Of a stretch of DNA of 64,000 bases, positions 40,396 through 61,235 are shown piece after piece. Within the stretch, counting starts at the first letter, position 1; the number at the start of each line of letters is the position of its first letter. The notes beneath the pieces are model-generated. The model ran no database searches and was not told the origin of the DNA. It worked only from the letters and a program-made list of their open reading frames with translations. The translations under genes and the position numbers were made by a program. The DNA comes from Escherichia phage JK1, in sequence record MZ436830.1. The stretch is one strand, 5' to 3'.

Positions 40396-40866
40396 TTAAT
40401 CATGTTTCCACACCCCATCGGTATTTGACCAAAGTCGCTGATTATCTGATCCTCGCCACAGCTTTTTAGTCGGAAGATTTTTCTCATACTTCCCATCAAT
40501 AATAACATCAACATATTTAAGCATTTCTAGTTGTTTAATATCTTCAAACTTATATCCTGTCCACAACCAAATGCTTTTATTGGGATAAAGATTTTTTACT
40601 GTTTGAACCACAGAGTGAATCACGTCTCTGTTATCAGGATAAAGAGGGTCACCTCCGGTTATAGTTAATCCTTCTATATAATCATTATTCAAACATTCAA
40701 TCAATTGTTCTAGTGTTTCACCAGTAAATGGAATACCATTTCTAGCATTCCATGTTGATTTATTATAACACCCTTCGCATTTATGCAAACAACCTGTAAC
40801 GAAAAGAACGACCCTGCAACCAGGGCCATTAACAAAATCGCAAGGATAAAATCTATCATAATTCAT
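40396..40866 (-). CDS. nrdG: anaerobic ribonucleotide reductase activating protein (radical SAM)
   Basis: 156 aa; CLHKCEGCYN cluster motif. Confidence 0.85.
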   Translation of the reverse strand: MNYDRFYPCDFVNGPGCRVVLFVTGCLHKCEGCYNKSTWNARNGIPFTGETLEQLIECLNNDYIEGLTITGGDPLYPDNRDVIHSVVQTVKNLYPNKSIWLWTGYKFEDIKQLEMLKYVDVIIDGKYEKNLPTKKLWRGSDNQRLWSNTDGVWKHD

Positions 40867-42680
40867 TGGTGTTTAACCCTATGCATGATTTCTTTATTTT
40901 TACCGAGATTAAATCCGCGTTCGTTTGGATTTCCCAAATAACCACATGTTCTTCTTATGGTGTTCATCTTTTTAGGATCAGTTTCTCCACAAATAGAACA
41001 AACAAATCCGTTTTCAGTAGGAGTCATTTCATGGGTACTTCCACATGTAAAACATTTATCTACTGGCATATTAACACCAAAATAATCTAAATGTTGTGCA
41101 GCATAATCCCATACGGCCTCAAGACCTTTCAAGTTATTTTTCATATCAGGAAGTTCAACATAAGAAATGTGACCACCTGTCGCAATGAAATGATATGGCG
41201 CTTCACGAGAAATCTTTTCAAACGGAGTAATATTTTCTTCTACTGAAACGTGGAAACTGTTAGTGTACCAGCCTTTATCGGTAACATCTTTTACACTTCC
41301 ATATTTTTCTGTATCAAGTTTACAGAAGCGATAACAAAGGTTTTCAGCAGGAGTCGAATATAAACTAAAAGCAAATCCAGTTCTTTCAGTCCACTGTTTA
41401 AGATGAGCATTCATTTTAGTTAAAATTTCTTGTCCAATATCACGACCGACAAGAATATTCAATTCGTGAATACCAATGTATCCTAGGGACACTGAACTTC
41501 TACCGTTTTTAAATAACTCAATTATGTCGTCATCAGGTTTAAGACGAACCCCGAATGCACCTTCTTGGTAAAGAATAGGAGCAACAGTAGCTTTAACTCC
41601 TTTTAAGGAACTAATTCTACACATCAATGCTTCAAAACACAGATCCATTCGTTCATTGAACAATTCAACAAATTTCTGTTCATTGAATTGTGTTCCAATA
41701 TAAGAATCTAACGCGATGCGAGGAAGATTCAATGTTACAACACCAAGATTATTACGTCCATCAAGAATTTCATTACCGGTCGAATCTTTCCATACGCTCA
41801 AGAAACTACGGCATCCCATCGGAGAAACAGGAACAGATGAACCAGTGATAGCTTTATTGTTCTTAGCCGAAATGATGTCAGGATACATTCTTTTGCTTGC
41901 GCACTCTAAAGCAAGCTGCTTAATATCATAGTTCGGGTCGTCTTTATAAAGATTAACACCTTCTTCAACGAACATAACAAGCTTAGGGAAAATAGGAGTT
42001 ATCCCATCACGACCAAGACCTTTAATACGATTTTTCAGAATTGCTTTCTGAATCATTCGTTCAGTCCAGTCAGTTCCCGTACCAAATGTAATTGTTACAA
42101 AAGGCGTTTGTCCGTTTGAACTAAAGAGAGTATTTACTTCATATTCATAAGCTTGGAATGCATCGTATACGTCTTTTTCTGTTTTAGATTGAGCATAATT
42201 CAATGCATCAGCGATTTGCCATTTTTCTGCATCCTCAATATGTTTTGCATAGGTGCGTTTAACATAAGGAGAAAGTACTTTATCTACATTAGCAAAAGTC
42301 GTTCCGCCGTATTGGTGAGAAGCAACCTGTGCAGTAATTTGTGCCATAATTGCAGTAGCAACACCGATTGATTTAGGAGTTTCAATCTGTGCATTACCAA
42401 GCTTAAATCCGTTCTCAAGCATTCCTTTTAAATCTACTAAACAGCAATTAGTAAATGGAAGAGCAGGGGAATAATCAATATCATGGAAATGGATAATTCC
42501 GCTTTCATGAGCTTTCATAATAAAAGACGGGACCATATTTTTGGCAATGTGTTTAGACACAATACCAGCCATAAGGTCCCGTTGAGTTGGAAAAACACGA
42601 GAATCTTTATTAGCATTCTCGTTTAAAAGGTCTTTATTAGTTTTATGAATCAATCCTTCAATTTCTTTTTCAATTGTCAT
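40863..42680 (-). CDS. nrdD: anaerobic ribonucleotide reductase, uninterrupted
   Basis: 605 aa; C-terminal Zn ribbon CFTCG...CSICG and glycyl radical region. Confidence 0.9.
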   Translation of the reverse strand: MTIEKEIEGLIHKTNKDLLNENANKDSRVFPTQRDLMAGIVSKHIAKNMVPSFIMKAHESGIIHFHDIDYSPALPFTNCCLVDLKGMLENGFKLGNAQIETPKSIGVATAIMAQITAQVASHQYGGTTFANVDKVLSPYVKRTYAKHIEDAEKWQIADALNYAQSKTEKDVYDAFQAYEYEVNTLFSSNGQTPFVTITFGTGTDWTERMIQKAILKNRIKGLGRDGITPIFPKLVMFVEEGVNLYKDDPNYDIKQLALECASKRMYPDIISAKNNKAITGSSVPVSPMGCRSFLSVWKDSTGNEILDGRNNLGVVTLNLPRIALDSYIGTQFNEQKFVELFNERMDLCFEALMCRISSLKGVKATVAPILYQEGAFGVRLKPDDDIIELFKNGRSSVSLGYIGIHELNILVGRDIGQEILTKMNAHLKQWTERTGFAFSLYSTPAENLCYRFCKLDTEKYGSVKDVTDKGWYTNSFHVSVEENITPFEKISREAPYHFIATGGHISYVELPDMKNNLKGLEAVWDYAAQHLDYFGVNMPVDKCFTCGSTHEMTPTENGFVCSICGETDPKKMNTIRRTCGYLGNPNERGFNLGKNKEIMHRVKHQ

Positions 42681-60047: not shown

Positions 60048-60307
60048 ATACTGGCTTCTTTGAGTTTCGTTTTAGCAATAGTTAACTGATCGAGGCTTTC
60101 GGCGTAATTCTTCGCGAGTTCATCATCTTCACAGCTATCAAATGCTTCCCAAAATTCATCGTATAAAGCATCAAAGATAAGTCCTAAACGAACTTCAGCG
60201 TCTTTAATAGCATTTACTTTACCGATTTTTTCGTCGGTATGTGGCTTATAACCTTTAATATCTTCAATCATATTTGACTTCCTCACCAGTACATAAATCG
60301 TATTCAA
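60005..60307 (-). CDS. hypothetical protein
   Basis: 100-aa ORF. Confidence 0.45.
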
Positions 60308-60485
60308 CTAAACGAATAGGTTCATGAATGCCATATCCCTGAACAGAAATTTCTGTAGTAGGATAAATTCCATCAATATCACCCATATTCCACGCTTCGT
60401 TAAATTGCTGTTCGCCTGAATTACTAAACCACTCGGCGAAAGCATTTAGCACATCTTTAGAACCTTCAATAATTATCTTTGCCAT
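60264..60485 (-). CDS. small hypothetical protein
   Basis: 73-aa ORF. Confidence 0.45.
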   Translation of the reverse strand: MAKIIIEGSKDVLNAFAEWFSNSGEQQFNEAWNMGDIDGIYPTTEISVQGYGIHEPIRLVEYDLCTGEEVKYD

Positions 60486-60847
60486 TACAAACTCTCGGTG
60501 AAGGTACGAGCGATAACGTCGCGCTGCTGTTCCGGAGTCAGAGAGTTAAAGCGAACTGCATAACCGGATACACGGATGGTCAGCTGCGGATATTTTTCCG
60601 GATGCTTAACTGCATCTTCCAGAGTTTCACGACGCAGAACGTTAACGTTCAGGTGTTGACCACCTTCAATTTTAACTGTAGGCTGTGGCTCAATTTCAAT
60701 TTCACGGGCATGCAAACCGTAGAAAATTTCTGGGTCTACAAAAGAGTCCTCTTTAAAGGTTTTAGAGACAATAATTCGTGCTTGAATACCATCTTCAAAA
60801 TAAATAGTGCCTTTATGTGTGCCTTCAAGAATTTGATATGCTTTCAT
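60485..60847 (-). CDS. autonomous glycyl radical cofactor (GrcA/YfiD-like)
   Basis: C-terminal ...[27 protein letters not shown] glycyl-radical motif; 3' half GC-rich. Confidence 0.8.
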
Positions 60848-60854
60848 ATAAACC

Positions 60855-61235
60855 TCAATTAGAAAATAAATTTATCCAAGATTGTTCTTTAATTAAAAAT
60901 GGCTCAGAATCATATGCCATTAAACTTTGGGTAATTAATCCTTTAAAAGGTCCATCAATAAATTCCATGGTAAAATATGGAATTTTATTCATTAGCCGTG
61001 CATTAGGAGCAGTGCACAAAACTCTGCATCCTTTGAATATACCTTTTTGTAATTTGTATTGCTTGGGATAAAATTCGCTCAAAGTGTTATTATTTGCCAA
61101 AATTTCAAAATGATTCACCAATTTATTTTTAATAGTTTTTGGCGAAAAATAAAGATATTCGAAAAGCTGAGTGTCTGTCATCATTGCATTCCAATCACAA
61201 AAAATTGAGGACGAGTAATACCACCAATGCAACAT
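60855..61235 (-). CDS. hypothetical protein
   Basis: 126-aa ORF, start uncertain. Confidence 0.4.

Follow-up and report, generated by a model that had tools for sequence, protein, structure and literature searches.

A tract identical to Escherichia coli grcA within vs.6 of Escherichia phage JK1 points to repeated overwriting of a phage gene by its host counterpart

In the 64,000-nucleotide stretch of Escherichia phage JK1 analysed here (sequence record MZ436830.1; the whole stretch is called the window below), the gene vs.6, which encodes a small autonomous glycyl-radical cofactor, is a mosaic: 169 consecutive nucleotides in its 3' part match the E. coli chromosomal gene grcA exactly, and the sequence on both sides of this tract is of phage type. 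We consider it very probable that grcA was captured long ago, that the 3' part of the captured gene has recently and recurrently been overwritten by host grcA, and that the product acts as a spare part for pyruvate formate-lyase (PFL). The window derives from a Tequatrovirus, and the gene at 60485..60847 is vs.6 of phage T4. Its 120-residue translation, the same as given in the original prediction made from the letters of the window, shows no residue difference from Vs.6 of T4T and equals UniRef entry A0A653FZL9_BPT4, a T4 protein titled 'autonomous glycyl radical cofactor' whose sequence occurs in 187 contigs in public collections. At the DNA level the vs.6 region does not differ from that of Escherichia phage teqskov (100% identity), and its identity to vs.6 of T4T is 98.3%. 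The protein is also referred to as Y06I, a legacy UniProt name which we take to denote Vs.6. The gene and its parts are as follows.

60485..60847, minus strand: vs.6 (Y06I) coding sequence from the open reading frame list, 120 codons plus stop; phage autonomous glycyl-radical cofactor
60670..60847, minus strand: old phage-type 5' part (gene nt 1-178, codons 1-60), the AT-rich, diverged N-terminal half; GC 35.4%, GC at third codon positions (GC3) 23%
60501..60669, minus strand: host-identical tract (gene nt 179-347; codons 61-115 and flanking bases; EGGQHLNV...DVIART), including the predicted radical glycine; 169-nt exact match to E. coli grcA
60485..60500, minus strand: 3' edge (gene nt 348-363, last five codons and stop) with phage-type synonymous codons, all five different from E. 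coli

A host-identical tract with sharp edges

As the host reference we used the chromosomal grcA of E. coli in its ung-grcA-eamB context. Gene nt 179-345 of vs.6 are identical to it at 167 of 167 positions, with a longest exact run of 169 nt. In the ungapped register upstream (gene nt 91-178) identity falls to 39/88 (44%), with indels further upstream, and over the last 18 nt of vs.6 downstream it is 13/18 (72%); the tract differs from both flanks (Fisher p = 1.5e-28 against the upstream and 5e-6 against the downstream segment). Synonymous and non-synonymous divergence (dS and dN, Nei-Gojobori estimates throughout) follow the same division: where the 5' part can be aligned with E. coli grcA, dS is 1.4 and dN 0.88, and in the tract dS is zero over 42 synonymous sites. 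At the other edge the last five codons of vs.6 (TTC ACC GAG AGT TTG) encode the same residues as those of E. coli (TTT ACT GAA AGC CTG), each of them synonymously changed. The segment that is closer to the host than the rest of the gene is also set off by a step in composition, from 35.4% GC in the 5' part to 50.3% (GC3 44%) in gene nt 179-345 (60503..60669), against a window mean of 34.3%. It is the GC-richest 167-nt stretch in the 64 kb (z = 3.97), and the 0.028% of 167-nt intervals that reach its value all lie here.

The original prediction had seen a GC-rich, host-like 3' half at about 60485-60700 joined to an AT-rich and diverged N-terminal half, and had noticed that the C-terminal ~60 residues resemble E. 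coli GrcA (YfiD). On alignment these residues are identical at 60 of 60 positions, and the N-terminal half is as described (35.4% GC, 39/88 nucleotides identical). The GC plot, the nucleotide alignment with grcA and the comparison of the two halves by GC and GC3 all came out as predicted; divergence from grcA is far from uniform along the gene and the GC step is real. The extent has to be corrected, as the host-like DNA ends near 60669 and not at 60700, and the host-identical 3' part is a sharply bounded 169-nt block (60501..60669) and not simply half of the gene.

Every one of the 5,426 complete E. coli genomes yields a blastn match to the tract, and of the 5,432 matching E. coli records 5,156 have it at 99% identity or more. 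When window positions 39001-64000 (25 kb, including nrdD) were compared with all of these genomes by megablast, the matches consisted of this tract only, together with a weaker one to the paralogue pflB at about 80%. Since the grcA match is exact and that of pflB is not, the donor was grcA; pflB and tdcE were considered as DNA donors and rejected, pflB being just ~80% identical to the tract. An exact host match with host-like GC is also what one would expect if host reads had been assembled into a phage contig. The same in-frame junction, however, recurs in hundreds of phage genomes that were sequenced independently, several T4 records among them, and phage-type sequence lies on both sides of the tract within one reading frame, so that we give such an artefact practically no credence.

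Could the identity have been maintained without any recombination, by common descent and codon bias, with the protein or the mRNA under very strong purifying selection? The C-terminal 60 residues are indeed almost invariant across GrcA of the Enterobacterales, and codon usage in host grcA genes is biased. Synonymous sites nevertheless diverge freely elsewhere under the same protein constraint. Cronobacter phage Cronuts has the same tract residues (dN = 0) and a dS of 1.24 against E. coli, and in phages RB49 and T5 the synonymous sites of the tract are saturated. The hosts themselves differ in it, with dS of 0.57 between E. coli and Klebsiella pneumoniae and 1.2 between E. coli and Salmonella. 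Within vs.6 the final five codons keep the E. coli residues with all codons different, and in Klebsiella phages the tract has switched to the K. pneumoniae sequence. To calibrate, we compared the window phage with RB69, which belongs to another genus, Mosigvirus, and obtained the following dS values.

vs.7 (neighbour): 1.0
vs.5 (neighbour): 3.4
vs.6 codons 1-60: 0.35
vs.6 tract: 0.024

In the same pair, nucleotide identity is ~70% in the neighbours, ~90% in the 5' half of vs.6 and 99-100% in the tract. Among a panel of 83 enterobacterial grcA genes the window tract matches E. coli at 165/165 positions, cryptic Escherichia at 163/165 and other genera at no more than 152/165. The similarity of the tract to host grcA exceeds, in these dS comparisons, what shared descent and protein constraint provide. 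As far as synonymous sites can tell, then, neither shared ancestry nor protein constraint can explain the identity of the tract, and we regard an account that does without recombination as highly improbable.

The identity by itself has no direction, and in principle E. coli and K. pneumoniae might have received the 3' part of their grcA from T-even phages. We know of no specific support for this and consider it just as improbable. The composition of the tract is that of the host (50% GC, as opposed to 34% in the phage). E. coli grcA has an even GC content (47% in one part and 51% in the other), the two parts are similarly far from the K. pneumoniae and Salmonella orthologues, and the host gene sits in the conserved ung-grcA-eamB context. 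Since host grcA is uniform in composition and divergence and the tract has host composition, it is the phage gene that is the mosaic, and the transfer therefore went from host to phage.

The N-terminal half tells of an older event. A profile of eight phage N-terminal halves aligned by HHalign with a profile of twelve host N-terminal halves at a probability of 95.4% (E 1.9e-8, 49 columns), and intermediate phage sequences visibly bridge the phage-type and host-type N-termini. The alignment of the N-terminal halves led us to reject the possibility of an unrelated phage N-terminus fused to a captured domain. Judged by this remote but full-length homology, vs.6 is an old capture of the whole of grcA with a recently replaced 3' part, chimeric by age and not by origin. 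Host gene capture followed by recent 3' homogenisation is what the original prediction had proposed, and both the N-terminal homology and the zero dS of the tract agree with it.

Host type of the tract and number of exchanges

If the 3' part is overwritten by the gene of whichever host is being infected, the tract should follow the host, and for two host species it does so: it is of E. coli type in Tequatrovirus and Mosigvirus and of K. pneumoniae type in Jiaodavirus. In the Klebsiella phages of the latter genus the gene is built in the same way, with its 5' boundary at the same place. In Klebsiella phage 17-11 the tract is identical to K. pneumoniae grcA at 159/167 positions and to E. coli grcA at 147/167, and the window tract shows the reverse (146/167 to K. 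pneumoniae, 167/167 to E. coli). In the IMG/VR genome L129 the tract is identical to K. pneumoniae at 162/165 positions, and its GC is 58% as against 38% in the flanks. L129, 17-11 (158/165) and PKO111 (149/165) have in common an old phage-type 3' end. Among GenBank phage records, 638 share 95% identity or more with the final 185 nt of E. coli grcA; with the K. pneumoniae segment, 106 phage records are 95-99% identical, the matches listed being Klebsiella phages, and coliphages reach 85-88%. The K. pneumoniae reference was taken from a chromosome that is filed as a plasmid (CP125156.1, 5.37 Mb); a second chromosomal record with a grcA locus, LR134122.1 of K. aerogenes (568 kb), is filed in the same way.

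Several features of the tract speak to how often this has happened. The 3' endpoint of the E. coli type is nested, at nt 347 in the window, 350 in phage L105, 353 in L104 and 356 in T4, with some edges mosaic, and phage L107 carries 282C>A, the single-nucleotide polymorphism that marks the other common E. coli allele. Together with the Klebsiella version, the nested endpoints and the L107 allele indicate at least several separate exchange events and not a single one.

One could still imagine one or very few transfers from host to phage, into an ancestor of the coliphages and an ancestor of the Klebsiella phages, followed by phage-to-phage spread during co-infection and with no ongoing exchange with the host. 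Tequatrovirus and Mosigvirus share one 5' boundary, the 5' half of vs.6 is unusually alike in these two genera (dS 0.35, compared with 1.0-3.4 in the neighbouring genes), and Tequatrovirus phages named after Salmonella or Yersinia bear the E. coli tract. These points lend such a scenario some weight, but it leaves the nested and mosaic 3' edges and the alternative E. coli allele in L107 to be accounted for, as well as the three Jiaodavirus phages that share one old 3' end and yet differ in their match to K. pneumoniae (162, 158 and 149 of 165). Moreover, no synonymous change at 42 sites in a fast-evolving phage lineage implies very recent or repeated copying. We therefore think it unlikely, though less so than the other alternatives considered in this paper, that exchange with the host was confined to so few events, and favour recurrent overwriting by host grcA. 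Some movement between phages may have taken place as well: the comparison of window positions 60264..61235 with RB69 suggests a more recent passage between phage genera for the whole of vs.6 than for the genes beside it, and recombination on the shared host-identical tract may have been the seed.

A few individual records bear on the host type of the tract. Salmonella phage pSe_SNUABM_01 has a tract 164/165 identical to E. coli, and more generally Tequatrovirus phages with Salmonella or Yersinia in their names carry the E. coli type and not that of the named host, which may mean that they recently grew on E. coli or that they inherited the tract from coliphages. In Escherichia phage OES_C-2 (229-585) the 5' half of vs.6 has an in-frame 6-nt deletion (118 aa, with 'REIETQP'), and over its 3' 185 nt it comes closer to E. 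coli grcA (99.5%) than any other copy. Two candidates were discarded. EC.W14-2 (116 kb), which at first looked like a T5-like phage with the tract, is an incomplete Tequatrovirus. The 19-kb contig IMGVR_UViG_2706794630_000006 was a candidate for a Yersinia-tracking phage; it holds a full-length host-type grcA, 150/165 identical to Yersinia artesiana, and is probably bacterial DNA or a prophage flank and not a phage vs.6.

Other irregularities concern the reading frame or the label. Klebsiella phage CPRSA has vs.6 annotated as two coding sequences with a frameshift (222-586), a single-nucleotide frameshift interrupts the 5' half of vs.6 in L129 (401-759), and the grcA record of K. aerogenes NCTC10006 is also frameshifted (200-590); all three are probably sequencing errors and not pseudogenes. 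A record labelled as a Firmicute ('Vagococcus sp. WN89Y', NZ_JBQPOM010000029.1) contains an enterobacterial grcA whose protein is 91% identical to E. coli GrcA and is likely to be a mislabel or contamination.

Gene product, proposed mechanism and points to weigh

Vs.6 is a small stand-alone protein (~14 kDa) that consists essentially of one glycyl-radical domain. It matches Pfam PF01228 (Gly_radical) with 66.8 bits over residues 61-101 (gathering score 22.2), and its closest solved structure is YfiD (6OWR, E 8.6e-42). Homology to GrcA extends over the full length, the N-terminal half included; that half alone (60 aa) matched no NCBIfam model. The C-terminus mimics that of the PFL enzyme PflB: residues 58-120 align to PflB 697-759 (phmmer, E 5e-26), and the C-terminal 60 residues are ~80% identical to this segment. 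The predicted radical glycine lies in an RVSGY motif at codons 92-96, and the pattern CGNGTNWSNGGNTAY occurs a single time in the window, at 60560..60574.

60563..60565, minus strand: GGT codon of Gly95, predicted glycyl-radical site in RVSGY, equivalent to GrcA G102 and PflB G734 in the alignments to 6OWR and PflB

PFL activase introduces a glycyl radical into YfiD and into T4 Y06I, and both proteins return activity to oxygen-cleaved PFL (Wagner et al., 2001, BBRC 285:456, as described in Andorfer et al., 2021, PMC8683613). Since Vs.6 of the window is identical to the T4 protein, the published biochemistry of Y06I applies to it, and the suggestion in the original prediction that a phage GrcA could repair oxygen-damaged host PFL corresponds to what is reported for Y06I. 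In this scheme the host radical-SAM activase PflA would install the radical on Gly95, and the C-terminal 60 residues would dock into a PFL that has lost its own C-terminus to oxygen cleavage, restoring its activity. The fermentative supply of acetyl-CoA and ATP could thus be maintained in a microaerobic host once the phage has turned off host gene expression. The benefit to the phage, we infer, is that host fermentation is kept running during infection.

The original prediction also allowed for a different client, the phage's own anaerobic ribonucleotide reductase NrdD, and an earlier guess at a role in nucleotide metabolism had been made from the Pfam hit alone (Nolan et al., 2006). NrdD is a glycyl-radical enzyme as well, is cleaved by oxygen and is encoded in the same window.

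40863..42680, minus strand: NrdD, anaerobic ribonucleotide reductase, 605 aa, with a C-terminal RRTCGYLG glycyl-radical motif; 18 kb from vs.6

If Vs.6 served NrdD in place of host PFL, it would be expected to resemble the C-terminal glycyl-radical segment of that enzyme. BLASTP finds no significant match between Vs.6 and NrdD of the window (best E 3.9), the NrdD motif and tail are unlike those of Vs.6, the C-terminus of Vs.6 is that of GrcA and close to PflB 697-759, and the published assay of Y06I was done on PFL. We rejected NrdD as the client enzyme on this lack of similarity; the idea drew no support from the comparison and appears very doubtful, and PFL remains the client that we favour.

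The surroundings of the gene are those of T4. Its neighbours in the window are denV, vs.8, vs.7, vs.5, vs.4, vs.3, regB and vs.1, and the TAA stop of vs.6 shares one base with the ATG of vs.5 (TAATG). A scan for promoters and terminators around vs.6 found nothing above chance. The gene and its biochemical function are already known, named and studied in T4, and annotation is nonetheless uneven: in GenBank phage records vs.6 is variously called hypothetical protein, pyruvate formate-lyase, 2-ketobutyrate formate-lyase, acetyltransferase-related, ribonucleotide reductase subunit and GrcA, and in public protein sets the exact phage Vs.6 protein is also filed under E. coli, Salmonella and Enterococcus labels. 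Caution is called for in annotation, as the curated GrcA model narrowly misses Vs.6 and many records misname the gene.

How would the mosaic have arisen? T4 fragments host DNA, has very active recombination by UvsX, UvsY and 46-47, and exchanges readily with short stretches of homologous cytosine-containing DNA, marker rescue from plasmids being an example. After the old capture of grcA the loosely constrained N-terminal half has drifted to phage composition, and we propose that the conserved C-terminal coding region retained enough similarity for a first homeologous event, in which vs.6 and pieces of host DNA exchanged sequence during infection by homologous recombination or gene conversion. 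Once made, the ~170 bp of identity would ease further exchange, and such eased repetition would account for a tract that is kept at 100% identity or close to it by Tequatrovirus and Mosigvirus phages, in hundreds of genomes, and for the K. pneumoniae version in Jiaodavirus. The shared 5' limit falls where protein conservation, and hence DNA homology, ends, and would be set by it; the variable 3' limit is found within the last 6-17 nt ahead of the stop, where homology ends because vs.5 starts there. A stronger form of the proposal sees vs.6 as a standing hotspot at which T-even phages containing hydroxymethylcytosine (hmC) undergo gene conversion by the host, with fragments of the degraded chromosome repeatedly overwriting codons 61 to ~115 and so matching the spare part to the PFL and PflA of the current host. 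For this stronger form we see the chances as evenly balanced.

Several points weigh against an old capture with recurrent overwriting and a spare-part role, and they should be set beside the evidence above. In the phage collection, no phage is more than 90% identical to the grcA 3' ends of Salmonella enterica or Enterobacter asburiae. Copies in Slopekvirus, Karamvirus-like, Krischvirus and T5-like phages are old (117-143/165), and in the 83-gene panel those of Slopekvirus, Pseudotevenvirus/Karamvirus-like, Krischvirus, T5-like and jumbo phages have no close host. Recurrent homogenisation is documented for just two host species and three genera of Tevenvirinae, and part of the spread among coliphages may be phage-phage exchange and not fresh host events. 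The mechanism of recombination is one that we infer, and a boundary no more than 6 nt from the edge of homology is unlike simple patch conversion. As to the protein, Vs.6 scores 153.3 bits (residues 20-120) against the 170-bit cutoff of the NCBIfam GrcA equivalog TIGR04365 (spare_glycyl), which it misses because its N-terminus has diverged, and by this curated rule it is not an 'equivalog'. The equation of Y06I with vs.6 rests on a legacy UniProt name and on Vs.6 being the sole small glycyl-radical protein found in the window.

What, then, does the tract mean? T-even phages are virulent, break down the DNA of their host and are commonly held to exchange little with its chromosome. The presence, in hundreds of genomes, of a perfect tract of 169 nt that is specific for the host species shows that homologous exchange between chromosome and phage does occur and becomes fixed, and a marked grcA gene would be a simple assay for it. 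The tract is in effect a built-in host signature (E. coli or K. pneumoniae type), which is relevant to host prediction and to the Salmonella and Yersinia isolates of Tequatrovirus. If vs.6 is indeed a standing site of conversion, the tract would be a readable record of the recent host species, would provide a universal 170-bp patch of homology for phage-phage exchange among co-infecting T-evens, and would offer a clean, experimentally tractable case of natural recombination from a chromosome into a virulent phage. No new system is revealed here, as both the gene and its role are established; the residual interest lies in repeated conversion of a virulent phage gene by the chromosome, which is testable.

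Relation to known systems

We found no description of the nucleotide-level identity between vs.6 and grcA, or of its host tracking, in the literature (including Nolan 2006, Petrov 2010 and Andorfer 2021), and an earlier remark is possible. The nearest relative is T4 Vs.6/Y06I itself: the protein is the same, as is the gene order (denV, vs.8, vs.7, vs.6, vs.5 ... regB, vs.1), and the window differs at the 3' edge of the gene, where three additional codons have kept their phage-type synonymous form. E. coli GrcA (YfiD; TIGR04365, 6OWR) is, like Vs.6, a stand-alone glycyl-radical protein of ~14 kDa, with which it shares the last 60 residues and 169 identical nucleotides. In contrast, the N-terminal half of Vs.6 is ~30% identical to that of GrcA, with indels, and is 7 residues shorter, and vs.6 resides in a virulent phage, where it is co-transcribed and overlapping with early phage genes. 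The GrcA-like genes of T5-like phages, Slopekvirus, Krischvirus and jumbo phages have the same domain and RVSGY motif, and their C-terminal residues are often near-identical, but their DNA is 71-87% identical to any host of the panel, with synonymous sites saturated and no host-identical tract.

The closest parallel for the exchange itself is found in cyanophages. Zeidner, in 2005, reportedly described mosaic psbA and psbD genes arising by intragenic recombination between host and phage in T4-like cyanophages. As in vs.6, a host-derived metabolic gene in a T4-like phage has swapped segments with the host copy. Host-phage intragenic recombination with patchy GC has been documented for these genes (Sullivan et al., 2006, PMC1484495). 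The case of vs.6 differs from psbA and psbD in its hosts, which are enteric bacteria, in its phages, which are hmC-containing T-evens that degrade host DNA, and in the form of the exchanged segment, which is a single, sharply bounded block of 100% identity for which the donor species can be identified and the direction of transfer is clear.

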